Assembly (NCBI GenBank): GCA_966186235.1
Contig: CBIFVM010000020.1
Span: 14,503-78,502 of the forward strand
DNA length: 64,000 nt
Reading direction: 5' to 3'
DNA from: an uncultured Pseudomonas sp.
Lineage (GTDB): Bacteria; Pseudomonadota; Gammaproteobacteria; Pseudomonadales; Pseudomonadaceae
Below, piece by piece: positions 9,913 through 62,835 of the stretch. Each line of letters begins with the position of its first letter. Position 1 is the stretch's first letter. The translations under genes were made by a program, and so were the position numbers. The notes beneath the pieces are model-generated. The model did not search any database. It was not told the DNA's origin and was given only the letters and a program-made list of their open reading frames with translations.

Positions 9913-10146
9913 TCAACTGGCGACGATGATCACGGTGATGCAGATCATCGCCACCACGCCAAACACCATGCGGGCGATCCAGGGGGCGGTGAGCCAGGCG
10001 GTGGTCGCGCCGGCCACCTGGCCGACGTTCTTCTCGGTGAGCCAGCGATTGCCGGGCTGCGCTTGCATCGGATTGCCGCACTGTGGGCAGGCATGAGCCT
10101 TGTCGGAGATGCGGTGTTGGCATTCGGGGCAGTCGATAAGGCTCAT
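9913..10146 (-). CDS. Small zinc-ribbon membrane protein
   Basis: CPEC-x10-CPQC plus C-terminal hydrophobic helix; SD GAGG; 77 aa. Confidence 0.75.
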   Translation of the reverse strand: MSLIDCPECQHRISDKAHACPQCGNPMQAQPGNRWLTEKNVGQVAGATTAWLTAPWIARMVFGVVAMICITVIIVAS

Positions 10147-10296
10147 CTCGGTCGTCCTCTGATCGGTGGCGATAGCTGGAGGTGAGACTGGGCGCCGCTA
10201 ACCGAGTTCCGTGCCAGGCCAGAGCTGACGCGGGCTGCGGGAATTTTTACTGGAATTGAGAAAGCGCTCGCACCGTGCGGCGAGCGCTCTGCGGCG

Positions 10297-10641
10297 TCAC
10301 TTGCGGCGCCACTGCCCTTGCTGCTGGATGTATTGGCCGGCCGGGGTCTTGTCGATGGCCTTCTGGCCAGCGATGGTTTCCACGTCGCTGAGCTGGATGC
10401 CGTTCTGCTGGGCAAGCTTCTGGTATTCGGCCCGGCGCGCAGCGTTGATCAGCTTGGCGATCTCGTCGGCCTGGCCGGCGGATTTGACCACGCCGAGGTA
10501 GCCGTTGGGCATTTCGCCGAGCTGGCCGCTGGCCTTGGCGTCACCCAGGGCGGACATCGCCTCGTTGAGGCTGATGGCGTGGGCAGGCAGGCTCAGGCTG
10601 AACAGCAGCAACAGGCCGGCGAAAGGTTTGATCAGGTTCAT
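10297..10641 (-). CDS. ydbL: YdbL/DUF1318 family periplasmic protein
   Basis: Signal peptide, AKASGQLGE..NGYLG, INAARRAEYQKLA; third gene of the ydbH-ynbE-ydbL arrangement. Confidence 0.85.
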   Translation of the reverse strand: MNLIKPFAGLLLLFSLSLPAHAISLNEAMSALGDAKASGQLGEMPNGYLGVVKSAGQADEIAKLINAARRAEYQKLAQQNGIQLSDVETIAGQKAIDKTPAGQYIQQQGQWRRK

Positions 10642-10651
10642 GCGTGGCTCC

Positions 10652-10843
10652 TTAGAACAGTCCGCTGGATTCACTGAACATGCTGTCCAGCGCCTTATCC
10701 ACCTTGATATAGATCTCGTGCTCGATCTTCACATTCAGGTTGATGTTGATCGGCTCGTTGGGCATCGCCAGTTGTACCGTCGGGGTACAGGCTGTGGTCA
10801 GCAGCCCCAGCAGCAGGGCGGTGATGCAACTACGCAAGCGCAT
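10652..10843 (-). CDS. ynbE: YnbE-family lipoprotein
   Basis: Lipobox LTTAC followed by TPTVQLAMPNEPININLNVKIEHEIYIKVD. Confidence 0.88.
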   Translation of the reverse strand: MRLRSCITALLLGLLTTACTPTVQLAMPNEPININLNVKIEHEIYIKVDKALDSMFSESSGLF

Positions 10844-10857
10844 GGCGCTTCTCCTCG

Positions 10858-38807: not shown

Positions 38808-39608
38808 ATGCTCATCTCTCTCAAGTCACAGGTCGCGCTGGTCACTGGTGCGAGTTCGGGTATCGGCGCGGCTTCGGCCAAGGCGCTGGCAGAGGCGGGC
38901 GCCGCAGTGGTGCTCAACTATCGATCCGGGCGTGAGGCTGCCGAGAAGCTCGCCACGCAAATCCGCGATGGTGGTGGCCAGGCCATCGCCGTTCAGGCGG
39001 ATGTGTCCAGCGAGCAGGAGGTCGAGGCGATGTTCGCTGAAACCCTTTCCGCCTTCGGGCGCCTGGACATTCTGCTGGCCAATTCCGGCATGCAGCGCGA
39101 CGCGCCGACCGTCGACATGAGCCTGGACGAATGGAACCAGGTGCTGCAGGTCAACCTCACCGGCCAGTTTCTCTGCGTGCGCGCGGCGCTGCGGCAGTTC
39201 GCCAAGCAGGGCATTCGCGAGGAGATTTCCCGCGCGGCCGGCAAGATCATCCAGATGAGTTCCGTGCACCAGCTGATTCCCTGGGCCGGGCGCGCCAACT
39301 ACGCGGCCTCCAAGGGCGGGCTCGACCTGCTGATGCGCAGCGTGGCGCAGGAGGTGGGCGAGCAGCGTATTCGCGTCAATGCCATCGCCCCGGGGGCCAT
39401 CCGCACCGCGATCAACCGTGAAGCCACCGAAGGCGCGGCTGCCGAAAAATTGCTCGAGCTGATTCCCTACGGCCGTATCGGCGACGCCGAGGACATCGCC
39501 AATGCAGTGGTGTGGCTGGCCTCCGATGCCGCCGATTACGTTCACGGCACCACGCTGTTCATCGACGGCGGCATGAGCCTTTACCCGGAGTTTCGTGACA
39601 ATGGCTGA
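38808..39608 (+). CDS. SDR oxidoreductase, glucose-1-dehydrogenase-like
   Basis: TGASSGIG, NYAASKGG (YxxxK), PYGRIG, LFIDGGMSLYP. Confidence 0.9.
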   Translation: MLISLKSQVALVTGASSGIGAASAKALAEAGAAVVLNYRSGREAAEKLATQIRDGGGQAIAVQADVSSEQEVEAMFAETLSAFGRLDILLANSGMQRDAPTVDMSLDEWNQVLQVNLTGQFLCVRAALRQFAKQGIREEISRAAGKIIQMSSVHQLIPWAGRANYAASKGGLDLLMRSVAQEVGEQRIRVNAIAPGAIRTAINREATEGAAAEKLLELIPYGRIGDAEDIANAVVWLASDAADYVHGTTLFIDGGMSLYPEFRDNG

Positions 39609-41412
39609 TATCCAGGATCGTCAGATGCCCATCGAGGCCCACGGCATCATCGGCGACATGCGCAGTGCCGCGTTGGTCGCCGACAGTGGTTGCGTGGACT
39701 TCTTCTGCTGGCCGGATTTCGACAGCCCGTCGATCTTCAGTGCCTTGCTCGACACGCCCGAAGCCGGGGTTTTTCAGCTGGCGCCGGATCTGCCCGAGGC
39801 GCGCCGTCAGCAGCTGTACCTGCCCGATACCAACGTGCTGCAAACGCGCTGGCTGGACGAGCAAGCGGTGGTGGAATGCACCGACCTGATGCCGATCAAC
39901 GCGGATGTCGATGCCGCGCCAAGGCTGATCCGTACCATTCGCGTGGTCTCCGGCCACGCCACCATCCGCCTGCGCTGTCGGGTGCGCCACGATTACAGCC
40001 GCGCTGACACGGTCGCCGGGCTGGAAGGCGGCGACGTGCTGTTCACTGCGCTGGGCCAGCCCAGCCTGCGGCTGTCGGCGAGCGAGGCGCTGGTGGTCGA
40101 CGATCAGTGCGCGGTCGCCGAATTCGAGTTGCGTGAAGGCCAACATGCGGAATTCGTGCTGGGTGCGACGGATGATCCGCTGGTATCCGCCGGTGCCTGC
40201 GAGCACTGCCGCGACGAGACGGTGAAGTACTGGCGGCGCTGGATGAAGCAGTCCAACTACCGTGGGCGCTGGCGCGAGATGGTGCATCGCTCGGCCCTGG
40301 CGCTCAAGCTGCTGACCTCGCGCAAGCATGGCGGCATCATCGCCGCCGCCACCTACGGCCTGCCGGAGGCACCGGGCGGTGAGCGCAACTGGGATTATCG
40401 CTACACCTGGATTCGCGACGCCTCGTTCACCGTCTACGCGTTCATGCGCCTGGGGTTTTCCGAGGAAGCCAATGCCTTCATGCGCTGGGTGCGCGATCGC
40501 GTAGACGACTGCTCGGAAACACCCGCGCACCTGCGCATTCTCTACAGCCTGCGCGGGCAGCATCATCTGCCGGAAAGCTCGCTCGATCACCTGGCCGGCC
40601 ATGGCGGTGCGAAGCCGGTGCGCATCGGCAACGAAGCCCACGAGCAGACCCAGCTGGATATCTTCGGTGAACTGCTGGATGCCGTGTACCTGGCCAACAA
40701 GTACGGCGAGGCAATTTCCCACGACGGCTGGAAGCACGTGGTGGGTATCGTCGATCAGGTCTGCGACAGCTGGCGGCAGAAGGACGTCGGCATCTGGGAA
40801 ATTCGTGGCGAAGAGCAGCATTTCCTGCATTCGCGGCTGATGTGCTGGGTCGCCCTGGATCGTGCCATCCGTTTGGCCCAGAAGCGTTCGCTGCCGGCAC
40901 CGTTCGCGCGCTGGAACGACGAGCGCCAGGCCATCCATGACGACATCTGGAACAATTTCTGGGACGAGAGCTGCGGCCATTTCGTGCAGCGCATCGGCTG
41001 TCAGCACGTCGACGGCTCCATGCTGCTGATGCCGCTGATGCGTTTCGTCGCCGCCACCGATCCGCGCTGGCTGGCCACCCTCGAGGCCATCGAACAACAG
41101 CTGGTGCGCGACGGCATGGTGTATCGCTACCGCACCGATGATGGGCTGGAAGGCGAGGAAGGATCGTTCCTTGCCTGCTCGTTCTGGTACGTCGAGTGCC
41201 TGGCGCGCGCCGGCAGGATCGAAAAGGCCCACCTGGAATTCGAGCAGTTGCTGCGCTATGCCAATCCGCTGGGGCTGTATGCCGAAGAGCTCGATCGGCG
41301 TGGCCATCATCTGGGCAACACCCCCCAGGCGCTGAGCCACCTGGCGCTGATCAGCGCGGCGAGTTTTCTCGATCACCGGCTCAGTGGCGAGCGCACGACC
41401 TGGCAACCCTGA
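39601..41412 (+). CDS. Glycoside hydrolase family 15 (trehalase/glucoamylase-like)
   Basis: HGIIGDMRSAALV, RNWDYRYTWIRD, GIWEIRG, EGSFLACSFW, GNTPQALSH. Confidence 0.92.
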   Translation: MADIQDRQMPIEAHGIIGDMRSAALVADSGCVDFFCWPDFDSPSIFSALLDTPEAGVFQLAPDLPEARRQQLYLPDTNVLQTRWLDEQAVVECTDLMPINADVDAAPRLIRTIRVVSGHATIRLRCRVRHDYSRADTVAGLEGGDVLFTALGQPSLRLSASEALVVDDQCAVAEFELREGQHAEFVLGATDDPLVSAGACEHCRDETVKYWRRWMKQSNYRGRWREMVHRSALALKLLTSRKHGGIIAAATYGLPEAPGGERNWDYRYTWIRDASFTVYAFMRLGFSEEANAFMRWVRDRVDDCSETPAHLRILYSLRGQHHLPESSLDHLAGHGGAKPVRIGNEAHEQTQLDIFGELLDAVYLANKYGEAISHDGWKHVVGIVDQVCDSWRQKDVGIWEIRGEEQHFLHSRLMCWVALDRAIRLAQKRSLPAPFARWNDERQAIHDDIWNNFWDESCGHFVQRIGCQHVDGSMLLMPLMRFVAATDPRWLATLEAIEQQLVRDGMVYRYRTDDGLEGEEGSFLACSFWYVECLARAGRIEKAHLEFEQLLRYANPLGLYAEELDRRGHHLGNTPQALSHLALISAASFLDHRLSGERTTWQP

Positions 41413-41422
41413 ACCAGGGCGG

Positions 41423-42277
41423 TCAGTGAGCGCTCTGCAGGCCGGCCCAGGCTACGGCGCCGAGAATCAGCGCGCCGCCGAGCAACATGCCGGCGGTCGG
41501 TACGGCGCCGAACAGCAACCAGGCGCCGGCGATGGCATAGATCGGCTCCATGGTGATCACCACTGCAGCCGTATGGGTGCGCACGTGGCGTAGCGAGGCG
41601 ATGAACAGGCTGTAGGCCAGGGCCGTGCACAGCACGCCCAGGGCCGCCAGTTGCCACCAGTCGTGAGTGCTGATGGTCGGCACCTCCGGCAGGCACCAGA
41701 ACAGCAGCGCGAGGCTGATCGCCAGGCATTGCCACCAGCATGACGCCAGGCCATCGGCGCTGCTGGCCGCATGCTTGTTGGCCACCGCAATCGCCGCATA
41801 TATCGCACCGGACAGCACGCCATAGAGCAGGCCGACGGTGGCGCCATCGCGCAGGTCGAACGATGGGGTGATCAGCACCAGCCCGACCGACACCAGCACC
41901 AGTATCCAGCGGTCGCTGCGCCCCAGACGCTGGCCGAACACCAGCCGCTCGATCAACGCGGTGAAGGCCGGAAACGAGGCGAAGCCCAGAGTCGCCACGG
42001 CCACGCCGCCGGTTTGCACCGCCATGAAGAACAGCAGCCAGTGCGCGCCCAGCGCTATGCCGGTGGCCAGCAGCTTGGCTGCAGTGGCCGGGGTAACGCC
42101 GCGCCAGGGCTGCCTGCCCAGGCACAGGCAGAACAGGCTCAGGGCCAGGAGCGCGAAGGCCGAGCGGCCCAGCACGATCATGCTGGCGCTGACCTTCAGG
42201 GATTCGCCGAACAGTGCCGAGACGCCGACCAGCAGGGCGGCCGCGTGGAGTTGCAGATGGGCGGTGCGAGAACTCAT
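41423..42277 (-). CDS. EamA/DMT-family transporter
   Basis: Ten-TM pattern, LCTALAYSLF, MEPIYA. Confidence 0.85.
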   Translation of the reverse strand: MSSRTAHLQLHAAALLVGVSALFGESLKVSASMIVLGRSAFALLALSLFCLCLGRQPWRGVTPATAAKLLATGIALGAHWLLFFMAVQTGGVAVATLGFASFPAFTALIERLVFGQRLGRSDRWILVLVSVGLVLITPSFDLRDGATVGLLYGVLSGAIYAAIAVANKHAASSADGLASCWWQCLAISLALLFWCLPEVPTISTHDWWQLAALGVLCTALAYSLFIASLRHVRTHTAAVVITMEPIYAIAGAWLLFGAVPTAGMLLGGALILGAVAWAGLQSAH

Positions 42278-42402
42278 CGGGTGGAATGCCTGGGAAATGT
42301 CGCGCGTGCAGGAAGTTTTGCGCCACGCGCTAAAGCGCGCGAACCGGAAGGCCTCTAAGGTGCCGGTTACCGCGCGCGTTTGAAAGCAGTTTTGGCCCGC
42401 GT

Positions 42403-43872
42403 TCAGGAAACGATCTTCACCGGTGTCTCCATCGCCTGGCGCTCTTCGGTCACCTGGGCCAGCGCCTGTTCCGGTGTGATCTGGCAGCGCGGAGTGAGCA
42501 GGGAGACGACTACACCTGCCACCACTGCTGCGATCACCGCGGGAATGCTGGGGTTGCCCCAATAGGCGCTCCAGCCGGCATGGCTGATGATGGTCAGTGA
42601 TGTCGTGGACGCCGCGATCAGCGTGGCAAGGGCACCTTGCCAGTTATAGCGGCCCCAGAACTTGCCGAGGATGGCGCAGACGAACATGCCGGCCATGACC
42701 GTGGCGATCATCTTGGTGATGTAGCTGATGATGTTGTCCGAGGTAAGGGCGAAGGCCAGCGCCATGCCGATGGTGAACAGCAGGGCGAAGCGCGAATAGC
42801 GCACCACGCGCTCGGCCGGCGGCGTGTGGCCGGTAACCAGGATGTACAGGTCGCGCATCATGATCGACACGCCAGCCAGGGCGTCGGAGCTGGCGCTGGA
42901 CATGGTCGCCGAGAGGCCGGCGATCATCACCAGCAAGCCCAGCCCGAGGGGCAGCACCTGGGTAGCCAGGAACGGGAAGGCGTAGTTGCTGTTCTCCAGA
43001 TTTGGCGCCAGGGTGTGGGCGGCCATGCCGATGATCGCCGGAATGATGGAGAAGCCCATGTACAGGATGCCGGTGAACACGAAGGAGCGGCGCACGCTGC
43101 CGACCGAGTCCGCCGAGTAGATGCGCTGGCGGAAAGACGGCGTGGCCAGCACGCCGATGGCGACCACGGCAGCGAGGGAAATCGCCGGGATAAGCCCCAG
43201 GCTACTTATCCCTAGAAAGCCAGTGGTGGCGGCGTCCATATTGTCGGCGAGATGGGCGAAGCCGCCAATCTCGACCAGGGCGAACACCGCCATGGCGATG
43301 AAACCGATGAACAGCAGGATGGCCTGGATGGTGTCGGTCCACACCACGGCCAGATAGCCGCCGATGATGCAGTACAGGCCGAAGCCGATGGCGACCACGA
43401 ATTTTGCGGTGTTCAGGTCGATGTCGGTGATCCACGCCAGGTACATGCCACCGCCGAGGATGTGCGCGCCCAGCCAGCCGATGCTGGCGATGTAGATCAA
43501 CAGCGCCACCACGTTGCGCACCACCCGACTGCCGCCCACGTAATAAGCCAGCTCCTCGCTCATGGTCATGAAGCGCAGCTTGCGCACCGAGGCGAACAGC
43601 GCGGCCAGCAGCAGAATGCCGATGGCCCCGCCGATGCCATACAGCGCGCCGGCCCAGCCGTTGTTGTAGCCGAAGCCCACCGCGCCCATGCTCGAGCCGG
43701 TGCCGACCATGGTCGCGACGGTGGTGCCGATGGTGAGAAACAGCGGAATGCTGCGCCCGCCGAGGAGAAAGTCATCACCCGTGGAGCGATGATGGCGTGA
43801 AACCCACCAGCCCAGAGCGATCATGGCCAGGAGGTAGATGAAGAAACTGCCGAGAAAGATGTTGCTGTTCAT
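42403..43872 (-). CDS. Sodium:solute symporter (SSS) family transporter
   Basis: DDFLLGGRSIP, GGYLAVVWTDTIQ, AGLSATMSSASS; 489 aa. Confidence 0.92.
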   Translation of the reverse strand: MNSNIFLGSFFIYLLAMIALGWWVSRHHRSTGDDFLLGGRSIPLFLTIGTTVATMVGTGSSMGAVGFGYNNGWAGALYGIGGAIGILLLAALFASVRKLRFMTMSEELAYYVGGSRVVRNVVALLIYIASIGWLGAHILGGGMYLAWITDIDLNTAKFVVAIGFGLYCIIGGYLAVVWTDTIQAILLFIGFIAMAVFALVEIGGFAHLADNMDAATTGFLGISSLGLIPAISLAAVVAIGVLATPSFRQRIYSADSVGSVRRSFVFTGILYMGFSIIPAIIGMAAHTLAPNLENSNYAFPFLATQVLPLGLGLLVMIAGLSATMSSASSDALAGVSIMMRDLYILVTGHTPPAERVVRYSRFALLFTIGMALAFALTSDNIISYITKMIATVMAGMFVCAILGKFWGRYNWQGALATLIAASTTSLTIISHAGWSAYWGNPSIPAVIAAVVAGVVVSLLTPRCQITPEQALAQVTEERQAMETPVKIVS

Positions 43873-43989
43873 ACCTGACCTCAGATTGGAATGATTGTTG
43901 ATCGAGGTAGCTGTCAGCGAGCCGGGCAGCGTGGCGCCGGCTCGGGGCTGCGGTGATGAAAGGGATCTCCTGCGGGGCGGGCGCTGGGG

Positions 43990-44382
43990 TCAGGCGCGCG
44001 ATGCCTTGAAGCACTTCACGTCGACCTCGACCTTGCAGTCGACCACCAGGTCCTGAACGCTGCAGATGCGCGCCGGCGGGTGGTCGCCGAAGATCTCCTT
44101 GAAGACCTTGTTGAACGAGCTGAAGTAGCGCGCGTCGGTGAGCACGGTGGTCACGTGCACCACGTCTTCGACGCCGTAGCCGGCCTCGGCCATGATGTCG
44201 AGGCAGTTCTGAAAGGCCAGGCGCGACTGTTCGATGATGCCGCCTTCGACTACTTCGCCGTCCTTCATGGGCGTCTGGCCGGATACGTAGAGCCAGCCGC
44301 CGGCTTCCACTGCACGTGAGAAGGGCAGCTTCTGGCCGCCGGTTCCGGTTCCGCCTTCGGCGCCATAACGTTTGATGCTCAT
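43990..44382 (-). CDS. RidA/Rid-family imine deaminase
   Basis: PFSRAVEAGGWLYVSGQ, FNKVFKEIFG..PPAR (conserved Arg), KVEVD. Confidence 0.9.
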   Translation of the reverse strand: MSIKRYGAEGGTGTGGQKLPFSRAVEAGGWLYVSGQTPMKDGEVVEGGIIEQSRLAFQNCLDIMAEAGYGVEDVVHVTTVLTDARYFSSFNKVFKEIFGDHPPARICSVQDLVVDCKVEVDVKCFKASRA

Positions 44383-44398
44383 GGGGTTTCTCCTTGGA

Positions 44399-45862
44399 TC
44401 ATGATCGAGAGTGGGGGAGTTCAGTGGTGCGTTTGAGCAGGCGGCCGGCACGCGCTTCGAGCTGCCCGTGGCGGTAGGCCACGGCGCCGTTGACCACAAC
44501 CAGCTCGATGCCCTGCGCCGCGGCGATGGGGTTGGCGAAGGTGGCGCGGTCGCGCACCTCGGCGAAGTCGAACAGCGTCAGGTCGGCAAAGGCGCCGACG
44601 CGCAGCTCGCCGCGATCAAACAGGCCGAAGTTGCGCGTGGACAGGCCGGTCATCTTGTGAATGGCTTCGGGCAGGGTGAACAGGCCCTGATCCCGGCAGA
44701 AATGCCCGAGCACCCGCGGGAACGCGCCCCATAGCCTGGGGTGCGGGTGCGGATCATTGGGCAGGCCGTCGGAGCCGACCATGCTCAGCGGATGGCGCAG
44801 GATGCGCCGCATGTCGTCCTCGGCCATGTTGTGGTAAACCGCGCCGGCCGGCTGTAGCCGCCGCGCGGCATCGAGCAGCGAGATGCCCCAGCTGGCCGCT
44901 ATGGCTTGCAGGGTTTGGCGCGCCATCTGCGGGTACGGATCGGACCAGGTGATGAAGATTTCGAAGTCTTCGGTGACCTGGCCAAGATCCAGAGTCGACG
45001 AGCCAGCGGTGTAGGGGTAGCAGTCGCAATGGCAGTTGTGCTGCCGCGCCGCCAATTCGAGTTTTTCCAGGGCCAGGGGCGCGGTGCCCCAGTTGCCGAC
45101 GCCGGCGCACTTGAGGTGGGAAATTACCAGCGGCGCCTGGCCGTGCCGGGCGGTGGCCACAGCTTCGTCCATGGCGCCCAGCAGCCCGGCGAACTCGTCG
45201 CGCAGGTGCGTGGTATAGAGGCCGCCGGCTGCGCCGACCTCTTCGACCAGTGCGCGCATCTCCGCTTCGGGCGCGTGGCGGGCGTTCATGTAGGCCAGCC
45301 CCGAACTCATGCCGATGGCGCCGTCCGCCAGGGCCTGACGCAGGGCGCTGCGCATCTGTTGGATTTCCTCGGCGCTGGCGGGGCGGTCGAAACGCTCCAT
45401 GAAGTTGGCGCGCAGTGCCGTGTGCCCGACCAGCGCCGCGACGTTGACGCTCGGTTGCGCCGCGCTGACCGCTTCGGCATAGGCAGCGAAGGTTGGGTAG
45501 CGAAAATCCTCGAGGCGGCCCAGCAGGTTCATGGGGTCCGGAACGTCGGGGCCGCGCAGGCGCACCGGCGCTGCGCTGATCCCGCAGTTGCCGACGATGA
45601 CCGTGGTAACGCCCTGGGTGAGCTTGGGCAGCATCTCCGGCATGCGGATGACGTTGCTGTCGTCATGGGTGTGCACGTCGATGAAGCCGGGCGCCAGGCA
45701 GCGGCCGTGGCCCTCGATGCAGGTGTCGGCTGACCAGTCGCGCAGGTCGCCAAGCGCGACGATGCGCTCGCCACGCACCGCCAGGTCACCCCGATAAGGC
45801 GCGGCGCCGGTGCCATCGATGAGCTGAACATCGCGAATCAGCAGGTTGGCGTGCTGCGACAT
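44399..45862 (-). CDS. N-acyl-D-amino-acid deacylase (D-aminoacylase family)
   Basis: PGFIDVHTHDD, GNCGIS, SHLKC, GSDG, HPRLWGAFPRVLG. Confidence 0.92.
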   Translation of the reverse strand: MSQHANLLIRDVQLIDGTGAAPYRGDLAVRGERIVALGDLRDWSADTCIEGHGRCLAPGFIDVHTHDDSNVIRMPEMLPKLTQGVTTVIVGNCGISAAPVRLRGPDVPDPMNLLGRLEDFRYPTFAAYAEAVSAAQPSVNVAALVGHTALRANFMERFDRPASAEEIQQMRSALRQALADGAIGMSSGLAYMNARHAPEAEMRALVEEVGAAGGLYTTHLRDEFAGLLGAMDEAVATARHGQAPLVISHLKCAGVGNWGTAPLALEKLELAARQHNCHCDCYPYTAGSSTLDLGQVTEDFEIFITWSDPYPQMARQTLQAIAASWGISLLDAARRLQPAGAVYHNMAEDDMRRILRHPLSMVGSDGLPNDPHPHPRLWGAFPRVLGHFCRDQGLFTLPEAIHKMTGLSTRNFGLFDRGELRVGAFADLTLFDFAEVRDRATFANPIAAAQGIELVVVNGAVAYRHGQLEARAGRLLKRTTELPHSRS

Positions 45863-45865
45863 GCT

Positions 45866-46729
45866 TCAGTCTCCCAGCGGCTGGCGGTTGTCGCCGCCAC
45901 GGTGGCTGTCGAGGGTCAGTTTCAGGCGCCGCAGTTTGTCGCGCGAGCGCTGCCGGTGGCGCAACGCCAGGCTCATGGCGAGCACGTCGATGGCCGCCAG
46001 CATGGCGTAGCGCGATGAAGAGGGGTGGTAGATGAAATCGGTCTCCCGGGCGGCAATCGGCAGGATCACGTTGGCCTGCTGCGCCAGGGGCGAATCCGAG
46101 GCGGTCAGTGCCAGCACCTGGGCGTCGTAACTGCGAGCGATACGCGCCGCGTCGACGATTTCCGGGGTGAAGCCGGTCACCGACAGCGCCACCACCACAT
46201 CGCTGGGATCCAGCGTGGCGGCGACCATGCGTGGCATCAGTGCCTGGGAATAGGCGCTGACGGCGTAACCCAGGCGAACAAGGCGAAACTGCATCTCCTG
46301 GGCGAGCACCACCGAGCCGCCGCCGGCGCCGAAGATGACGATCTGTCGGGCGCCGTCGAGCAGGTCGAGGGCGCGCTCGATATCGGCGTTGGCGATCAGC
46401 TCGCGGTTGAGGTCCAGGGTCTGCTTGGCGATCTCGTACACCGCGCCGATGCCGTCCTCTTCACTGGCTTCCTGGATGAAGCGCCGGCCCACGGCGAGCG
46501 ATTGTGCGAGGCGCAGCTTGAGTTCGCGCACGTCCTGGCAGCCGATGGATTTGGCGAAACGGGTAACGCTGGCATCGCTGACGCCGGCGCGGGCGGCGAT
46601 GGTGGAGATGTTGGCGCTGGTCACGAAATCGATATCGTCGATGATCATGGCCGCGACCTTGCGCTCGGCTTCACGCAGGGTCGGGTAGCGTTCGGTGATG
46701 CGCGACAGGATGTCGATTTCCAGATTCAC
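45866..46729 (-). CDS. RpiR/MurR-family regulator (HTH + SIS)
   Basis: AGVSDASVTRFAK, SIS domain LSVTGFTPE; GTG start inferred. Confidence 0.9.
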   Translation of the reverse strand: MNLEIDILSRITERYPTLREAERKVAAMIIDDIDFVTSANISTIAARAGVSDASVTRFAKSIGCQDVRELKLRLAQSLAVGRRFIQEASEEDGIGAVYEIAKQTLDLNRELIANADIERALDLLDGARQIVIFGAGGGSVVLAQEMQFRLVRLGYAVSAYSQALMPRMVAATLDPSDVVVALSVTGFTPEIVDAARIARSYDAQVLALTASDSPLAQQANVILPIAARETDFIYHPSSSRYAMLAAIDVLAMSLALRHRQRSRDKLRRLKLTLDSHRGGDNRQPLGD

Positions 46730-46904
46730 TTCAGGGCTCCGAGGCAGACCCAGTGCAGGGCCAGGAAAGCGTTGCAATGCTGGTGTTAATTTCTAACTTA
46801 AAAAAAATATTTGTGATAGTTATTTTCCGTGATTCAATCCAGTCGACCTGGCGAGGTGCCGTGCCACGGCCGTTCGCGCCCAGAAAACCGAGAAGGATCC
46901 AGAC

Positions 46905-48125
46905 ATGAAACCTGCTGACCTGAGCGACGCGCCGGCGAATGGCGTGGAGAAAGCTGCGATCATCGGCGCCGGTCGCGCCTTGCTGCACGATGTCAGCCTG
47001 CCAGCCGCGGTGGTTTATCAGCAGCCGCTGGCGCACAACATCGCCTGGATGCAGGCCTTTGCCGAGCGCCACGGCGCACGCCTGGCGCCCCACGGCAAAA
47101 CCACCATGACGCCGGCGCTGTTCCATCGCCAGCTCGAAGCCGGGGCCTGGGGCATCACCCTGGCCACCGCTACCCAGTGCGTGGCGGCGTTCGAACAGGG
47201 TGTGACGCGCCTGCTGATGGCCAACCAGCTGGTCGGTGCCGCGAACATGGCGCTGGTGGCCGGGCTGATTGCCAAGGGTGCGGAGTTTCACTGCGTGGTC
47301 GACAGCGTGGCAAACGTCCGTGCGCTGGATGAATTCTTCGCGGCCCGCGGTCTGCAACTGCAGGTGATGATCGAACTGGGCGTGGAAGGCGGCCGCTGCG
47401 GCGTACGCAACGACGACGAGCTCGAAGTGCTGCTGGCGGCGCTGGAACAGTCGAGCGCCCTGGTGCTGACCGGTATCGAGGGCTATGAGGGCATCATCGG
47501 CGGGCAAGCGCCGATTGCCGATGTGCGGGCCTATGGTGCGCGCCTGGTCGATACCCTGATGCGGCTGAAACGCAGCGCTGCCTTTACCGCCGACAAACCG
47601 GTGGTTACTGCGTCCGGCTCGAAATGGTTCGACCTGATCGCCGAAGCCTTCGACCGCGCCGAGCTGCGTGACCAATACATTGCGCTGCTGCGCCCCGGCT
47701 GCTACGTGGTGCACGACCACAAGCTGTATGCCGGTGCGATGGAGGAGGTCAAGGCACGGCATGCCGACCTCGAGGGCGAGCTGCTGCCGGCCCTGGAGGT
47801 ATTCGCCCATGTGCAATCACTGCCCGAACAGGGCCTGGCTATCGTCGCGCTCGGTAAACGGGATATCGGCTGCGACCCCGACTTGCCGATGCCCCAGCGT
47901 TTGTACCGCGAAGGCCAGGCGCCTCGGGACGTGCGCGGCTGGGGTGTACGGATGATCATGGATCAGCACCTGTTTCTGACCGTGCCCGCCGGCGAGGCCC
48001 TGGCGGTCGGCGACGTTATCTCCTTCGGCACCTCGCACCCCTGTCTTACTTTCGACAAGTGGAGACAGGTGCTGCTGGTCGATGAGGCGCTGAATGTGGT
48101 CGAAGTGATGCCGACGCGCTTCTGA
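46905..48125 (+). CDS. PLP fold-type III amino-acid deaminase (D-serine dehydratase/D-threonine aldolase-like; candidate D-glucosaminate dehydratase)
   Basis: LAPHGKTTM PLP-lysine motif, GIEGYEG, MDQH, SHPCLTFDKW. Confidence 0.85.
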   Translation: MKPADLSDAPANGVEKAAIIGAGRALLHDVSLPAAVVYQQPLAHNIAWMQAFAERHGARLAPHGKTTMTPALFHRQLEAGAWGITLATATQCVAAFEQGVTRLLMANQLVGAANMALVAGLIAKGAEFHCVVDSVANVRALDEFFAARGLQLQVMIELGVEGGRCGVRNDDELEVLLAALEQSSALVLTGIEGYEGIIGGQAPIADVRAYGARLVDTLMRLKRSAAFTADKPVVTASGSKWFDLIAEAFDRAELRDQYIALLRPGCYVVHDHKLYAGAMEEVKARHADLEGELLPALEVFAHVQSLPEQGLAIVALGKRDIGCDPDLPMPQRLYREGQAPRDVRGWGVRMIMDQHLFLTVPAGEALAVGDVISFGTSHPCLTFDKWRQVLLVDEALNVVEVMPTRF

Positions 48126-48166
48126 GCGCCCGGTCAACGCCGATGCATACAGACAAAGGAGCCGCC

Positions 48167-49129
48167 ATGACGATTTCCTCCAACCAGACGGCTCCGATAA
48201 AGGTCGGCCTGATCGGCGAGTGCATGATCGAGCTGCAGCGGCAAGCTGACGGCCGCATGCGCCAGAGCTTTGGTGGCGATACGCTGAATACTGCGGTCTA
48301 CCTTAGCCGCCTGTGCCGCGGTGAGGGTGTGGCGGTCGACTACCTCACCGCGCTCGGTGATGACCCCATGAGCCAGGCGATGCGGGCGCGCTGGAATGAG
48401 GAGCGTGTGGGCGATGGCCGTGTACGCGTACTGGCGGATCGGCTTCCGGGCCTGTATATGATCCAGACCGACGCCCAGGGCGAGCGGAGTTTTCTGTATT
48501 GGCGGGGTGAAGCGGCGGCCCGTTACTGCTTCGACGGGCCGGGCGCCGATCAGCTGCTGGCCGCTCTTGGCGACTATCACACGCTGTATCTCAGCGGTAT
48601 CAGCCTGGCCATCCTCACCGCCGAAGGGCGTCAGCGCCTGCTGGAAGCCCTGCGCCAGGCGCGCAGCCGCGGTACGCGCATCGTCTTCGACAACAATTAC
48701 CGGGCACGACTGTGGCCGAGCGCGGCCGAGGCGCGAAAACAGTACAAGGCCCTGCTGGGCTTGGTGGATATCGCGCTGGTCACCTGGGAGGACGACGTCG
48801 CCGTATTCGGTTTCACGACGCCGCAGCAGCTCTTCAGCCACTACGCAAGCCTTGGCGTCAGCGAGGTGGTGATCAAGCGCGGTGCGAGCAGTTGCCTGCT
48901 GCAAAGCGCTGATGGTCGCGCTGAGGTGGCGCCTGAGCCGGTGGAGCAGGTGGTGGACACTACCGCTGCTGGCGATTCGTTCAGCGCGGCCTATCTGGCC
49001 GCTCGCCTGTGTGGTGGCCAGCCGGAGGAGGCGGCACGTTGGGCTCACCGTCTGGCCGGCGCCGTGATCCAGCACCCGGGCGCGCTGATTCCCTTGCCGG
49101 CAATGCCGAACATGCCCTCGCTCGGCTGA
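48167..49129 (+). CDS. kdgK: 2-keto-3-deoxygluconate kinase (PfkB family)
   Basis: IGECMIEL, FGGDTLNTAVYL, FDNNYR..LW, DTTAAGDSFSAAY. Confidence 0.88.
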   Translation: MTISSNQTAPIKVGLIGECMIELQRQADGRMRQSFGGDTLNTAVYLSRLCRGEGVAVDYLTALGDDPMSQAMRARWNEERVGDGRVRVLADRLPGLYMIQTDAQGERSFLYWRGEAAARYCFDGPGADQLLAALGDYHTLYLSGISLAILTAEGRQRLLEALRQARSRGTRIVFDNNYRARLWPSAAEARKQYKALLGLVDIALVTWEDDVAVFGFTTPQQLFSHYASLGVSEVVIKRGASSCLLQSADGRAEVAPEPVEQVVDTTAAGDSFSAAYLAARLCGGQPEEAARWAHRLAGAVIQHPGALIPLPAMPNMPSLG

Positions 49130-49232
49130 CGGGCTGCATCGCGCAGTGTCAGGCTATTCGCCTCATGGCCCAGGTGAAGCCAGTTGCGCTATCTTCCGGA
49201 CTCCCTGATCACCTTTCGTTGAGGATCGCCGT

Positions 49233-50285
49233 ATGAGCTGCGCCGTTTTGGGTATCGACCTTCCGATCATTCAGGCACCCATGGCGGGCACCGCCACACC
49301 GGTTCTGGCGGCGGCAGTCAGCAACGCGGGCGGGCTGGGCTCGATTTCCATTGCTGCGGTGCAGGCCGAGGCCGGCCGGCAGATGATCAGGGAAACCCGC
49401 GCCGCCACGAGCAAACCGTTCAACATCAACGTGTTCTGCCACCGCCTGAGCGTCGCCGATGCGGTCAGGGAACAGGCGTGGTTGGCGCACTTGCAGCCCT
49501 ACTTCGCCGAGTTCGGTACGGCTGCGCCAGAGGCCATCCGGGATATCTACTGCAGTTTCCAAGAGGACGAAGGGCAACTGCAGGTTCTGCTGGAGGAGCG
49601 CCCGCCCATCGTCAGCTTTCATCTGGGGCTGCCGCCTCAGGCGCGCATCGATGCCCTGAAGAGCGCCGGCATCACCCTGCTGGCGTCGGCCACCACGCTG
49701 GAGGAAGGGTTGCTGGCCCAGGATGCGGGCATCGACATCATCGTTGCTCAGGGCATCGAGGCCGGCGGCCACCGCGGGGTGTTCGATCCGGCCCACGATC
49801 AGGGCATCGGCACGCTGGCTTTGGTGCGGGTGTTGGTCAAGCACCTGTCACGCCCGGTGATCGCCGCTGGCGGCATCATGGATGGCGCCGGGATCGCCGC
49901 CGCCATGAACCTGGGTGCCTGCGCTGCGCAATTGGGCACCGCGTTCATCCTTTGCCCCGAGTCGGCCGCCAACGAGGCCTATCGCCGCATGCTGGGCAGT
50001 GAGCGGGCACGGGTCACCCAGGTCACCACGGCGATTTCCGGGCGCCCGGCGCGGGGCATCGTCAATCGTTTCATGGCTGAGGTCGGGGCGCCCGGCCACC
50101 CTGCGGTGCCTGGGTTCGGGATTGCCTACGATGCCGGCAAGCAACTGATCGCCGCTGCCGCCAAGGCCGGCAACGCCGAATTCGCCGCCCATTGGGCGGG
50201 GCAGGGCGCGGCACTGGCGCGGACGATGCCTGCGGCGGAACTGGTGGCTGTATTGCAGCGCGAATATCTGGCGGCGCGTGCCTGA
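49233..50285 (+). CDS. Nitronate monooxygenase family flavoprotein
   Basis: [32 protein letters not shown]. Confidence 0.9.
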
Positions 50286-50965: not shown

Positions 50966-52301
<1,336 letters not shown>

Positions 52302-52424
52302 CCCTTACGGGCGGCTGGGCGCCGCCCGCTCAATTCGCTGTGTCGGCCCGTGCCGGCCAGCCTCACGGACGATGATTCTCGCTGCCAGGGCTGCAACGCC
52401 CCAGCCTTGCTGAAGGAGTGAACC

Positions 52425-53441
52425 ATGCTGGTTATGCGCCCCGCGCGAATGACCGACCTCGCCGAAGTGCAGCGCCTGGCCGCGGACAGCCCGGTGGGCG
52501 TCACCTCGCTGCCCGACAACGCCGAGCGCCTGCGCGACAAGATCGCCGCGTCGGAAGCGTCGTTCGCCGCCGAAGTCAGCTTCAACGGCGAGGAGCGCTA
52601 TTTCTTCGTGCTCGAAGACAGCGAAACCGGTCGCCTCTCTGGCTGCTCGGGCATCGTCGCCTCGGCGGGCTACTCCGAGCCGTTCTACAGCTTTCGCAAC
52701 GAGACCTTCGTTCACAACTCCCGCGAGCTGAAGATCCACAACAAGATCCACGTGCTGTCGCTGTGTCACGACCTGACCGGCAACAGCCTGCTCACCAGCT
52801 TCTACGTGGAGCGCGGGCTGGTCGACAGCGTCTGGGCCGAGCTCAATTCACGTGCGCGCCTGCTGTTCGCCGCCTGCCATCCGGAGCGCTTCGCCGACGC
52901 CATGGTGGTGGAGATCGTCGGCGAGAGCGACGACGCCGGTGAATCGCCGTTCTGGGACGCGGTCGGGCGGCATTTCTTCGGCATGAGCTACGGCGAGGCC
53001 GAGCGCCTGTGCGGGCTGCGCAGCCGCGCCTACCTGGCCGAGCTGATGCCCCATTACCCGATCTACGTGCCGCTGCTGCCCGATGCCGCTCAGGAGTCCA
53101 TGGGCCTGGTGCACCCGCGTGCCCAGGTGTCGTTCGACATCCTGATGCGCGACGGCTTTGAAACCGACCACTACATCGACATATTCGACGGCGGCCCGAC
53201 CCTGCATGCGCGCACCTCCGGCATTCGCTCCATCGCCCAGAGCGCGATGGTGCCGGTGGTGTTCGGCGAGACGGGTGAGGGCGGCCAGGCTTACTTGGTC
53301 AGCAACGAGCAATTGCAGGGGTTTCGTGCGGTCGTCGCGCAGCTGGAGTGGGCGCCTGGCCAGCCCGCGGTGCTCGATCCGCAGACCGCGCAGATCCTCG
53401 GCGTCGCCGAAGGCGGCCAGGTAAGGCTGGTGGCGGTATGA
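52425..53441 (+). CDS. aruF: Arginine/ornithine N-succinyltransferase alpha subunit
   Basis: MLVMRPA, YSEPFYSFRNETFVH, first of two paralogues in the operon. Confidence 0.93.
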   Translation: MLVMRPARMTDLAEVQRLAADSPVGVTSLPDNAERLRDKIAASEASFAAEVSFNGEERYFFVLEDSETGRLSGCSGIVASAGYSEPFYSFRNETFVHNSRELKIHNKIHVLSLCHDLTGNSLLTSFYVERGLVDSVWAELNSRARLLFAACHPERFADAMVVEIVGESDDAGESPFWDAVGRHFFGMSYGEAERLCGLRSRAYLAELMPHYPIYVPLLPDAAQESMGLVHPRAQVSFDILMRDGFETDHYIDIFDGGPTLHARTSGIRSIAQSAMVPVVFGETGEGGQAYLVSNEQLQGFRAVVAQLEWAPGQPAVLDPQTAQILGVAEGGQVRLVAV

Positions 53442-53493
53442 GTTTTCCAACCATGAGCGCCACCCGTCTGGCTCGCGATTTTCCGGAGGCAGC

Positions 53494-54510
53494 ATGATCG
53501 TTCGCTCCGTACGGGCCGGTGACCTGCCGGCACTGATCGACCTGGCGCGCAGCACCGGCACGGGCCTGACCACCCTGCCGGCCAACGAAGCGCGCCTGGC
53601 CTACCGGGTCGGGCGTGCCGAGAAGACCTTCAGCGGCGAAGCCGAGCGCGGCGATTGCGACTACATGTTCGTGCTCGAGGACGATGACGGCCGCGTGCTG
53701 GGCATTTCCGCCATTGCCGGCGGCGTCGGCTTGCGCGAGTCCTGGTACAACTACCGGGTCGGCCTGACCGTCTGTGCGTCCCAGGAACTGGGCATCCACC
53801 GTCAGGTGCCGACGCTGTTCCTGGCCAACGACCTGACCGGCCATTCCGAGTTGTGCTCGCTGTTCCTGCATGCCGACCACCGCACCGGCCTGAACGGGCG
53901 CTTGCTGTCCAAAGCGCGGTTGCTGTTCATCGCCGAGTTTCGCGAACGCTTCGGCGAGAAGATCATCGCCGAGATGCGCGGCGTGTCCGACGAGCAGGGC
54001 CGTTCGCCGTTCTGGGAGTGCCTTGGCCGGCACTTCTTCCGCATGGAGTTCTCCCAGGCGGACTACCTCACCGGCGTCGGTAACAAGGCGTTCATCGCCG
54101 AGCTGATGCCGCGCTTTCCGCTTTATACCTGCTTCCTGTCCGAAGCCGCCCGCGAGGTGATCGGGCGGGTGCACCCGGATACCGAACCGGCGCTGGCGAT
54201 GCTCAAGTCCGAGGGCTTCAGCTACCAGGGCTATGTCGATATCTTCGACGCCGGCCCGGCCATCGAGGCAGAGACCACGAAGATCCGTGCGATTCGCGAC
54301 AGCCAGCTGCTGGTGCTGGCCATCGGCACGCCGGGTGACGATGCCCCGGTTTACCTGGTGCACAACCGCAAGCACGCCGATTGCCGCATTACCGCAGCCC
54401 GGGCGCGGATGGCCGCCGGGACGCTGGTCGTCGACCCGCTGACCGCCCGGCGCCTGCGCCTGAATGTCGGCGATCAGGTGCGCGCAGTGCCCCTGGCGGT
54501 AAAGGCCTGA
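53494..54510 (+). CDS. aruG: Arginine N-succinyltransferase beta subunit
   Basis: GTGLTTLPAN, NDLTGHSELCSLFL, DIFDAGP. Confidence 0.93.
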   Translation: MIVRSVRAGDLPALIDLARSTGTGLTTLPANEARLAYRVGRAEKTFSGEAERGDCDYMFVLEDDDGRVLGISAIAGGVGLRESWYNYRVGLTVCASQELGIHRQVPTLFLANDLTGHSELCSLFLHADHRTGLNGRLLSKARLLFIAEFRERFGEKIIAEMRGVSDEQGRSPFWECLGRHFFRMEFSQADYLTGVGNKAFIAELMPRFPLYTCFLSEAAREVIGRVHPDTEPALAMLKSEGFSYQGYVDIFDAGPAIEAETTKIRAIRDSQLLVLAIGTPGDDAPVYLVHNRKHADCRITAARARMAAGTLVVDPLTARRLRLNVGDQVRAVPLAVKA

Positions 54511-54531
54511 ACCACCGTTTCTGATGTGACC

Positions 54532-54577
54532 CGGGGCGGCGCGCCGCCCCGACCGGCAATGTCGCCATAGAGCGACA
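54532..54577. other. Two palindromes in the aruG-astD spacer
   Basis: Perfect 20-bp CGGGGCGGCGCGCCGCCCCG (54532-54551) and TGTCGC-CATAGA-GCGACA (54560-54577). Confidence 0.6.
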
Positions 54578-54635
54578 GCCGTGACAGGTAGCAGGTCAGC
54601 GCTGGCCTGTGCAACCGTGAAGCCTGGAGTGATAG

Positions 54636-57445
<2,810 letters not shown>

Positions 57446-57483
57446 AGCGGCTCACTGCGAGCCGCCAACTTACTGGAGTAACC

Positions 57484-57768
57484 ATGAGCGACGCCCTGCA
57501 ACTGATCCTCGAAGACGCCGACGGCACCCAGCTGGAAACCTCGTGCACCCGTTTTGCCGTAATGTGGCAGGGCAAGGAAGTGTGGATTCAGCAGGTCGGC
57601 AACGGCCAGCTGATGATCGGCGTGGATGTGGCCGAAGGTGACACCGAGTACGCCAACCTGCTGCTGCGCCCGTTGGCCACCAACCTGGTCAGCCTGGAAC
57701 TGGAAATGGAGCCGGCCGATGATGGCGTCGATGACGACCACGTCCACGGCCCGGACTGCAATCACTGA
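57484..57768 (+). CDS. Small acidic protein in the ast operon with a His/Cys-rich tail
   Basis: SD GGAG; 94 aa ending DDDHVHGPDCNH. Confidence 0.85.
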   Translation: MSDALQLILEDADGTQLETSCTRFAVMWQGKEVWIQQVGNGQLMIGVDVAEGDTEYANLLLRPLATNLVSLELEMEPADDGVDDDHVHGPDCNH

Positions 57769-57777
57769 GGTACGCCC

Positions 57778-58788
57778 ATGCTCGCCCTCGGCAAACTGCT
57801 CGAACTGACCCTGACCGGCCATGAGCCGGCTTCGAAGATCCAGTTGACGCCGCAGGGCACGCGCTTGCGCTGGCTGGCCGAGGGCGCCCTCGAAATCACC
57901 CCGGCTTGCGGGCGCGACAACGGCATGGACCTGTTGCTGTCCGCAGGCATCCACGGCAACGAGACCGCGCCGATCGAGTTGCTCGACCGCTTGCTGCGGC
58001 GCATCGCGCGCAGCGAGTTGCAGCCGCGCGCCCGCGTGCTGCTGCTGTTCGGCAACCCGGCAGCGATGCGCCGTGGCGAGCGTTTCGTCGAGCAGGACAT
58101 CAACCGCCTGTTCAGCGGTCGTCATGAGCTGAGCAGTGGCGGCGAGGCGATGCGCGCCTGTGAACTGGAACACCTGGCGTCGTCATTCTTCATCGACTCC
58201 GGCCGCGAACGCCTGCATTACGACTTGCACACGGCGATCCGCGCCTCGCGTATCGAGCAGTTCGCCCTTTACCCCTGGGCCGAGGGGCGTCGCCAGTCGC
58301 GCCGCGAGTGCGCGCGGCTGCAGGCTGCCGGTATCGATGCGGTGCTGCTGCAAAGCAAGCCCTCGACCACCTTCAGTGCCTACACTTACGCCGAGCTGGG
58401 CGCCCAAGCCTTCACCCTCGAGCTGGGCAAGGCCAGGCCGTTCGGCCACAACGAGCTGGTCAATCTGGATCGCCTCGAGTTGCGTCTGCAGGCGCTGATC
58501 GAAGGCAACGAGCCGCCGATCGAAGAGCGCGCCGTCGAGCACCTCAAGCTGTTCGCCTTCTCCCGCGAGCTGATCAAGCACAGCGATGCCTTCGTTCTGC
58601 ACTTGCCTGCCGACGTGGAAAATTTCACCGAGCTGGAGCCCGGCTATCTACTCGCTGAAGACCTGGCCAACAGCCGCTGGGTGGTGGAAGAGCAGGGCGC
58701 ACGGATCATTTTCCCCAATCCTAAAGTCCATAATGGTCAGCGTGCCGGCATCCTGCTGGTGCCCGCTGCCGACTCTTCACTGGAGTGA
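57778..58788 (+). CDS. astE: Succinylglutamate desuccinylase
   Basis: [27 protein letters not shown]. Confidence 0.95.
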
Positions 58789-60037: not shown

Positions 60038-60210
60038 GATGGCCAGCGTGCAGTACCACGCAGTGGCCTGGCCGCTGCGGCCCAGTGTTTTCCGGCCATC
60101 GCGCCGCCTGCAAATAATTCAGCCCATGCCCTAGCCGCCGCGGACAAGCCCGATATAATGCGGGCTTTTGCCGGCTCTGCCGTGGCCGCCTGTTTTCCTG
60201 GAAATTGCCA

Positions 60211-62835
<2,625 letters not shown>

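Follow-up and report, generated by a model that had tools for sequence, protein, structure and literature searches.

The segment 42403-49129 of a 64,000-nucleotide stretch of DNA from an uncultured Pseudomonas sp. (the whole analysed stretch, hereafter the window) very probably encodes the cytoplasmic core of the ong pathway, with which the host would most likely scavenge free N-acetylglucosaminic acid (GlcNAc1A; 2-acetamido-2-deoxy-D-gluconate) from other chitin degraders. In this pathway, GlcNAc1A arising from oxidative chitin cleavage is imported and converted to an intermediate of the Entner-Doudoroff pathway. Transcriptomics, knockouts and enzyme assays have been used to take apart the ong cluster of Pseudoalteromonas prydzensis ACAM 620, which comprises OngIT, OngB, OngC (which yields 2-keto-3-deoxygluconate (KDG) and NH3), OngD, KdgK, OngR, the periplasmic enzyme OngA of glycoside hydrolase family 20 (GH20) and a TonB-dependent receptor (Jiang et al., Nat Commun 2022, PMC9537276). 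The pathway chemistry is therefore already published, and the locus brings no new mechanism. The assignment is carried by the orthology of the window proteins, the conservation of functional residues, the synteny of the locus and the gene content of the genome.

Six genes in two divergent units were found in 42403-49129 by open reading frame (ORF) listing and profile searches. The coordinates, families and orientation that a preliminary description of this DNA had given for them were all borne out by the ORF listing, Pfam and NCBIfam:

42403-43872, minus strand: ongIT, a symporter of the SSS family, putative inner-membrane GlcNAc1A importer (489 aa; Pfam SSF, 147.6 bits)
43990-44382, minus strand: ongD, a RidA-family protein, proposed 2-iminoacid/enamine deaminase assisting OngC (130 aa; Ribonuc_L-PSP, 84 bits; TIGR00004 Rid)
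44399-45862, minus strand: ongB, predicted GlcNAc1A de-N-acetylase with a D-aminoacylase fold, a subtype V mononuclear Zn amidohydrolase (487 aa; Amidohydro_3, 132 bits)
45866-46729, minus strand: ongR, predicted repressor of the MurR/RpiR family (287 aa; Pfam HTH_6, 59.9 bits; SIS, 64.7 bits)
46905-48125, plus strand: ongC, predicted fold-type III D-glucosaminate (GlcN1A) ammonia-lyase/dehydratase dependent on pyridoxal 5'-phosphate (PLP), giving KDG and NH3 (406 aa; Ala_racemase_N and D-ser_dehydrat)
48167-49129, plus strand (the ORF opens at 48143): kdgK, predicted 2-dehydro-3-deoxygluconokinase (NCBIfam NF052444, 404.8 bits; PfkB, 183 bits)

The start of ongD was refined to ATG 44382, behind an AAGGAG Shine-Dalgarno sequence (the ORF itself spans 43990-44499), and that of ongR to GTG 46729, which is common to the orthologues of Phytopseudomonas argentinensis and Halomonas (the ORF itself spans 45866-46777); kdgK probably starts at ATG 48167, with AAGGAG ahead of the start. 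The resulting spacers of 3 nt (ongR-ongB), 16 nt (ongB-ongD), 117 nt (ongD-ongIT) and 17-41 nt (ongC-kdgK) fit two divergent operons. The names that public annotation gives to these genes, "N-acyl-D-amino-acid deacylase" and "D-serine deaminase", are misleading. The preliminary description had proposed import of N-acetyl-D-glucosaminate, deacetylation, PLP-dependent deamination with the help of a Rid protein and phosphorylation by KdgK, under an RpiR regulator and independently of the phosphotransferase system (PTS) and NagA. This route is the ong pathway of Jiang et al. (PMC9537276), and the window proteins are clear orthologues of its components.

Orthology was assessed on a sample of 80 homologous loci fetched with their genomic context, against which the six window proteins were searched by tblastn. 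The ACAM 620 locus is not one of these 80; only OngB was compared directly with a characterised protein, in the PDB, and the other five were assigned through conserved synteny with clusters from Vibrio and Photobacterium that correspond to a type described by Jiang et al. Identities to the ong cluster of V. atlanticus were 66% for OngIT, 73% for OngD, 55% for OngB, 55% for OngR, 42% for OngC and 43% for KdgK. The core arrangement, in which ongC diverges from ongR-ongB-ongD-ongIT, recurs in Halomonas, Vreelandella, Photobacterium, Vibrio, Klebsiella, Raoultella, Gilvimarinus, Rheinheimera and others, and its recurrence across Halomonadaceae, Vibrionaceae, Enterobacteriaceae and Cellvibrionaceae shows that the gene grouping is not due to chance.

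A search of the PDB matched window OngB to OngB of ACAM 620 (PpOngB; 9KB1) with 557 bits and to a Klebsiella protein (KleDacyl; 9G5M), the closest solved structure, with 608 bits, whereas the true D-aminoacylases AfDam (1M7J) and BbDam (3GIP) scored 417 and 372 bits. Window OngB is thus closer in sequence to the characterised OngB than to D-aminoacylases, and its identity to the solved structures is about 60%. The metal, catalytic and substrate residues of PpOngB, which turns over GlcNAc1A with a kcat/Km of about 1.6 per mM per s, have been described from structures 9KB1 and 9KB3 (PMC12017989), and we mapped all 20 functional positions from that work onto window OngB and onto the 80 homologues. 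Window OngB retains the metal site (Cys97, His222 and His252; C93, H219 and H249 in the window protein), the catalytic Asp368 (D365) and His68/His70 (H64 and H66), the residues that anchor the acetamido and carboxylate groups, and the GlcNAc1A ligands Glu226, Ser291, Ser292, Gln298, Lys254, Tyr285 and Arg379. Mutagenesis has shown that positions 292 and 298 distinguish GlcNAc1A deacetylases from D-aminoacylases (PMC12017989). D-Aminoacylases have Thr292, Leu or Arg298 and a hydrophobic or cationic pocket; in contrast, window OngB has Ser and Gln (S289 and Q295), like the GlcNAc1A deacetylases. A homologue from Acerihabitans that stands without ong neighbours has Thr, Arg and Met at 292, 298 and 348, of which Thr292 and Arg298 are the N-acyl-D-Glu deacylase type, so that the discriminating positions behave as expected in this internal control.

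The same homologue (Acerihabitans arboris, locus L027, match 10001-11416) grouped with the Halomonadaceae/Phytopseudomonas clade in a quick maximum-likelihood OngB tree computed with IQ-TREE. Its sequence suggests that specificity has switched inside a close lineage, between carbohydrates and D-amino acids, but its placement in the tree is unsure because its branch is long.

The 66% identity of OngIT to the SSS proteins of V. atlanticus (L040) and Photobacterium (L014) holds over the full length, and these proteins lie directly downstream of ongD in clusters that also hold the GH20 gene ongA; identity rises to 70-73% in Halomonadaceae and 94% in P. argentinensis. Judged by its sequence, the window carrier is the canonical OngIT, the standard importer, which in ACAM 620 is essential and GlcNAc1A-specific for uptake (PMC9537276). 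The preliminary description had regarded the SSS importer as the distinctive part of the locus, a view that does not stand, since the characterised cluster itself uses the SSS carrier OngIT and the window carrier is 60-73% identical to the SSS proteins after ongD in Vibrio, Photobacterium, Klebsiella and Halomonas.

For OngC, the PDB search gave 372 bits to 3gwq, with D-threonine aldolases at 90 bits or less. The protein contains an HGKT lysine motif at 63 and an S-H-P-C motif at 377, which, from DSD1-type dehydratases, we take to be the PLP lysine and the H-x-C metal site. OngC is 61-62% identical to its Halomonadaceae counterparts and 91% identical to that of P. argentinensis, and its gene always adjoins ongR/ongB. 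Deamination of GlcN1A was shown for OngC of ACAM 620 (PMC9537276). Within the module, OngD shows the highest conservation (73-87% identical to OngD of the Vibrio and Halomonas clusters) and keeps the P-A-R arginine motif at 103-105. In the Rid literature, this arginine is said to be needed for imine hydrolysis, reportedly from work by Niehaus in 2015. The 127-aa OngD of ACAM 620 is genetically essential (PMC9537276). Window KdgK passes the NF052444 equivalog model by a narrow margin (404.8 bits against a cut-off of 400) and is 43% identical to the kdgK products of the Vibrio and Photobacterium ong clusters.

In the proposed mechanism, OngIT would import free GlcNAc1A, from which OngB would remove the acetyl group in a Zn-dependent reaction to leave D-glucosaminate. 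OngC would convert this by PLP-dependent alpha,beta-elimination of water and ammonia to KDG, and OngD would probably speed the hydrolysis of the OngC enamine/imine intermediate. KdgK would phosphorylate KDG to KDPG (2-keto-3-deoxy-6-phosphogluconate), which the aldolase Eda would split into pyruvate and glyceraldehyde-3-phosphate. OngR would keep both divergent operons repressed, probably via the conserved palindrome at 46785-46797, as long as neither the substrate nor an intermediate is present. What this scheme says of enzyme activity, transport specificity and repression is carried over, with good confidence, from the literature on the characterised orthologues; the role of OngD, the OngR operator and the ecological source of GlcNAc1A are what we infer.

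The genome from which the window comes (4.63 Mb, 99.99% complete, a 76-contig draft close to P. argentinensis) bears on that source. It contained no match to AA10 lytic polysaccharide monooxygenases (LPMOs; PF03067, LPMO_10), for which a control genome matched, none to GH20 OngA (neither to PF00728 nor to the Vibrio OngA protein) and none to GH18 or NagA. The absence of nagA, a gene that the preliminary description had left to be checked, agrees with the NagA-independent route it proposed. The TonB-dependent receptor OngOT is absent from the neighbourhood of the cluster, and eda is present elsewhere in the genome (244 bits). Because nothing in the genome could release GlcNAc1A from oxidised chitooligosaccharides, only the monomeric acid would be usable. 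The lack of LPMO, GH20 OngA, GH18 and NagA makes uptake of GlcNAc1A released by others, whether as scavenging or as cross-feeding, most likely, and scavenging from LPMO-bearing neighbours is the most economical reading. Strains of P. argentinensis are reported to be rhizosphere or root isolates; a literature search on growth of P. argentinensis on N-acetylglucosamine (GlcNAc) found nothing.

LPMO_10, GH20, GH18 and NagA were also searched in 16 other genomes that carry the SSS-type module. In P. argentinensis and six Halomonadaceae, LPMO, GH20 and GH18 were each found in 0/7 and NagA in 2/7. The nine genomes from Vibrionaceae, Enterobacteriaceae, Cellvibrionaceae and Chromatiaceae had LPMO in 6/9, GH20 in 7/9 and GH18 in 8/9. 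Within the Enterobacteriaceae, the sole GH20 gene of Raoultella sp. BIGb0138 (G011:C7:64049-65325) has an in-frame TGA, was matched in three pieces and is probably a pseudogene, and GH20 and LPMO are both missing from Raoultella scottii. In some members of this family, the periplasmic part of the ong pathway seems to be decaying.

Alternatively, with unchanged enzymology, the cell could make the substrate itself, as the preliminary description suggested. A periplasmic membrane glucose dehydrogenase dependent on pyrroloquinoline quinone (Gcd), or another oxidase, would turn GlcNAc or glucosamine into the aldonic acid for import by OngIT, which would amount to a full GlcNAc route without phosphorylation or NagA and unrelated to chitin LPMOs. 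We consider this unlikely, on the following balance. The genome lacks nagA and encodes one complete Gcd (1062 bits; C40:21573-23930), with a second copy split over two contig ends (G000:C64:2-1996 and G000:C61:5-454), and of the seven genomes with sister modules, six (P. argentinensis and 5/6 Halomonadaceae) have a Gcd that exceeds the cut-off. However, Gcd is common in these families with or without ong, so its co-occurrence says little. Glucosamine as feed would make OngB unnecessary, yet the deacetylase gene is the best-kept core gene; an N-acylhexosamine oxidase of the berberine bridge enzyme (BBE) type is absent from the genome; and a literature search on oxidation of GlcNAc or glucosamine by Gcd in Pseudomonas gave nothing usable.

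Several points weigh against scavenging of GlcNAc1A by an ong core. The absence of chitinolytic genes comes from hidden Markov model searches of a 76-contig draft, and the search for GH19, which found no match in the genome, was run without a positive control. OngC is only 42-48% identical to OngC of the Vibrionaceae clusters, and the characterised OngC of ACAM 620 also deaminates D-Ser and D-Thr (PMC9537276). KleDacyl, the closest solved relative of OngB, is, in the presence of Co2+, a weak deacylase of N-acetyl-D-Met and N-acetyl-D-Phe (for N-acetyl-D-Met, kcat/Km is 2.8 per min per mM), and GlcNAc1A does not occur in the main text of the paper describing it (PMC12149444). Two pocket positions of window OngB differ from PpOngB, with Gly for Ser290 (G287 in the window protein) and Asn for Gly348 (N345), and with this altered pocket the exact substrate could differ.

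The KleDacyl and OngC activities, together with the membership of OngB in the D-aminoacylase superfamily, are what would favour a genuine salvage unit for N-acyl-D-amino acids (N-acetyl-D-Ser, N-acetyl-D-Thr or N-acetyl-D-Met, for example), made up of a deacylase, a D-Ser/D-Thr dehydratase and RidA, with the kinase incidental. By analogy with KleDacyl, some promiscuity of window OngB towards N-acetyl-D-amino acids is possible. As the function of the locus, such salvage is extremely improbable: PpOngB and two homologues were inactive on ten N-acetyl-D-amino acids, window OngB has the carbohydrate-type Ser292/Gln298 and not Thr plus Leu or Arg, kdgK shares an operon with ongC and lies 17-41 nt behind it, the regulator belongs to the RpiR type, which senses sugar phosphates, and the transporter is an orthologue of OngIT, which is specific for GlcNAc1A.

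The Ser290-to-Gly change bears on the identity of the sugar acid. In the complex of PpOngB, Ser290 binds the C5/C6 hydroxyls (PMC12017989), and its replacement might alter the recognition of distal hydroxyls. The window is not alone in having the Gly: P. argentinensis has it, and so do five Halomonas/Vreelandella genomes and many loci of Acidobacteriaceae and Gemmatimonadales (L006-L011, L025, L061, L063, L069-L077, L081 and L083), and LPMO, GH20 and GH18 are absent from every Gly-type genome checked (n = 7). The module might then act on another N-acyl amino-sugar acid, such as N-acetylmannosaminate, another 2-acylamino aldonate or an acid with a different acyl group. We judge this very unlikely, since the remaining GlcNAc1A ligands are all kept and the co-transcribed KdgK equivalog calls for a gluco- or manno-configured C4-C6 tail; the association of Gly with the lack of LPMO is confounded by descent, because one clade underlies it. 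A combination of these ideas would see in the trimmed ong modules of Phytopseudomonas and Halomonadaceae no means of scavenging acid from chitin but the cytoplasmic steps of an oxidative route for amino sugars that is complete in itself, with Gcd oxidising GlcNAc or a related N-acyl hexosamine and the Gly for Ser290 marking a shifted or broadened range of OngB; this, too, appears improbable.

Expression of the two operons would be controlled from the region between ongR and ongC, where a candidate operator was found. The features outside the coding regions are:

46730-46904, no strand: AT-rich divergent control region of ongR and ongC (175 bp; promoters placed here only from the divergent arrangement)
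46785-46797, no strand: palindrome GTTAGAAATTAAC, 13 bp, candidate OngR operator (position conserved among relatives)
42331-42377, minus strand: GC-rich hairpin followed by UUU right after the ongIT stop, a possible, weak operon terminator (from folding)

OngR, which acts as a repressor in ACAM 620 (PMC9537276), is 55% identical to the regulator of the Vibrio cluster, 67-69% to those of Halomonadaceae and 99% to that of P. argentinensis. The palindrome GTTAGAAATTAAC matched once in the 64-kb window against 0.01 expected. P. argentinensis and four Halomonadaceae (including Halomonas sp. McH1-25, Halomonas sp. SpR1 and Vreelandella neptunia) have it at the corresponding place between the two genes. 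Vreelandella venusta and Halomonas DWK9 have it with a single change, and its core is also found in Veronia. From this conservation, GTTAGAAATTAAC is a reasonable candidate for the OngR operator. A sigma-70 consensus scan of 42200-49300 gave no promoter matches. The hairpin after ongIT has a stem whose energy is no better than that of shuffled sequence (z -0.31) and was missed by the consensus terminator scan, and the one after kdgK likewise folds no better than shuffled sequence. Two terminator-like matches, both inside ongIT, were fewer than in shuffles and were set aside as chance.

The locus of P. argentinensis LMG 22563 (L006) has the same gene order, flanking genes included, with 87-99% protein identity, which places the window in or next to Phytopseudomonas argentinensis. 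In the OngB tree, the window and P. argentinensis fall within a well-supported Halomonadaceae clade, apart from the OngB-like proteins of other Pseudomonas, and none of 36 genomes drawn from the same GTDB genus had an OngB closer than 65%. The module is thus patchy in the genus and most like the Halomonadaceae type, which fits lateral acquisition, although no compositional anomaly is visible.

About twenty species of fluorescens-group Pseudomonas carry a different set, with a GntP permease, an RpiR regulator, an OngB-like deacetylase and a glyoxalase-family protein (L032:7700-11853 in Pseudomonas libanensis, and L035, L038-L043, L045-L048, L053, L056, L058, L071 and L078). The preliminary description had named GntP- or ABC-type carriers in related clusters, and the former are indeed present in this group; the Paraburkholderia fungorum module (L019), checked for an ABC carrier, is followed by unrelated genes (QueF, 5'-nucleotidase and threonine dehydratase). 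The OngB-like proteins of the fluorescens group are about 60% identical to window OngB and keep Ser292/Gln298. No ongC, ongD or SSS gene lies within 10 kb of them, so the deaminase step must be encoded elsewhere or be different.

Just beyond ongIT lie an EamA transporter gene (about 41423-42340, minus strand) and, at 38808-41412, a short-chain dehydrogenase/reductase (SDR) gene, glucose-1-dehydrogenase-like, that overlaps the start of a GH15 glycoside hydrolase gene. The EamA, GH15 and SDR genes adjoin ong in P. argentinensis and not in Halomonadaceae, and are therefore probably outside the module. The other flank holds a nitronate monooxygenase gene and then the aru operon, an arginine succinyltransferase operon of the Pseudomonas type (51081-58788 and 60205-62835; aruC-aruF-aruG-astD-astB-astE, with two AstA paralogues), after which come a threonine-aldolase-like gene and alaS. 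Upstream of this operon, the unrelated nitronate monooxygenase gene and a small hypothetical gene stand in place of aot-argR.

A literature search on ong modules in non-chitinolytic bacteria found only four papers that mention ong genes, and Jiang et al. reported only genomes with both ong and LPMO (PMC9537276). The window offers a clean case of the ong core alone in a complete genome unable to attack chitin, a state that is the rule in the Phytopseudomonas and Halomonadaceae clade. Modules that stand alone in this way suggest that communities degrading chitin in the rhizosphere and on marine particles share GlcNAc1A as a public good, and that metagenome counts of OngB overestimate the number of primary oxidative chitin degraders. 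The conserved palindrome provides a testable candidate for the OngR operator.

Compared with the ong cluster of ACAM 620, the window cluster has the same six functions from the same families (OngIT, OngD, OngB, OngR, OngC and KdgK) and lacks the GH20 enzyme OngA and the TonB-dependent receptor OngOT; ongOT-1 is the least conserved ong gene according to Jiang et al. (PMC9537276). The operons also differ, with ongR-ongB-ongD-ongIT diverging from ongC-kdgK in the window and ongCRBD and ongIT-kdgK-ongA in ACAM 620, and PpOngB differs from window OngB in having Ser at 290 and Gly at 348, where the latter has Gly and Asn. The Vibrio-type clusters (V. atlanticus, L040; Photobacterium sanctipauli, L014) share the order ongB-ongD-ongIT with the window, and their ongC is found upstream, on the opposite strand. 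The V. atlanticus cluster runs on into kdgK-kdgA(eda)-ongA(GH20), whereas the window has kdgK behind ongC, and its genome encodes eda at another site; a Vibrio-type cluster with the extra kdgA was described by Jiang et al. (PMC9537276). The V. atlanticus and Photobacterium genomes carry LPMO, GH18 and NagA, whereas the window genome carries none of the three.

The closest lineage outside Phytopseudomonas is that of the Halomonadaceae modules (Halomonas and Vreelandella; L007-L011), which are 66-69% (OngB), 71-73% (OngIT), 67-69% (OngR) and 61-62% (OngC) identical to the window proteins. Gene order, the Gly in place of Ser290 and the control-region palindrome are common to them and the window, as is the absence of LPMO, GH20 and GH18; unlike the window, they have no kdgK beside ongC. 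Upstream of the Vreelandella venusta module (L008:4010-7756, and the same in L009) lie genes for a LacI regulator, a PfkB kinase 30% identical to window KdgK, a D-2-hydroxyacid dehydrogenase and a HAD hydrolase, a neighbour set that resembles the kgu-like set for 2-ketogluconate. The Salmonella Dga pathway for D-glucosaminate, with uptake by a PTS, the glucosaminate-6-phosphate ammonia-lyase DgaE and the aldolase DgaF, is a more distant parallel. Like the ong pathway, it treats an amino-sugar acid as a D-amino acid and ends in KDPG; unlike it, the Dga pathway starts from the non-acetylated acid, places PTS phosphorylation first and uses unrelated enzymes.

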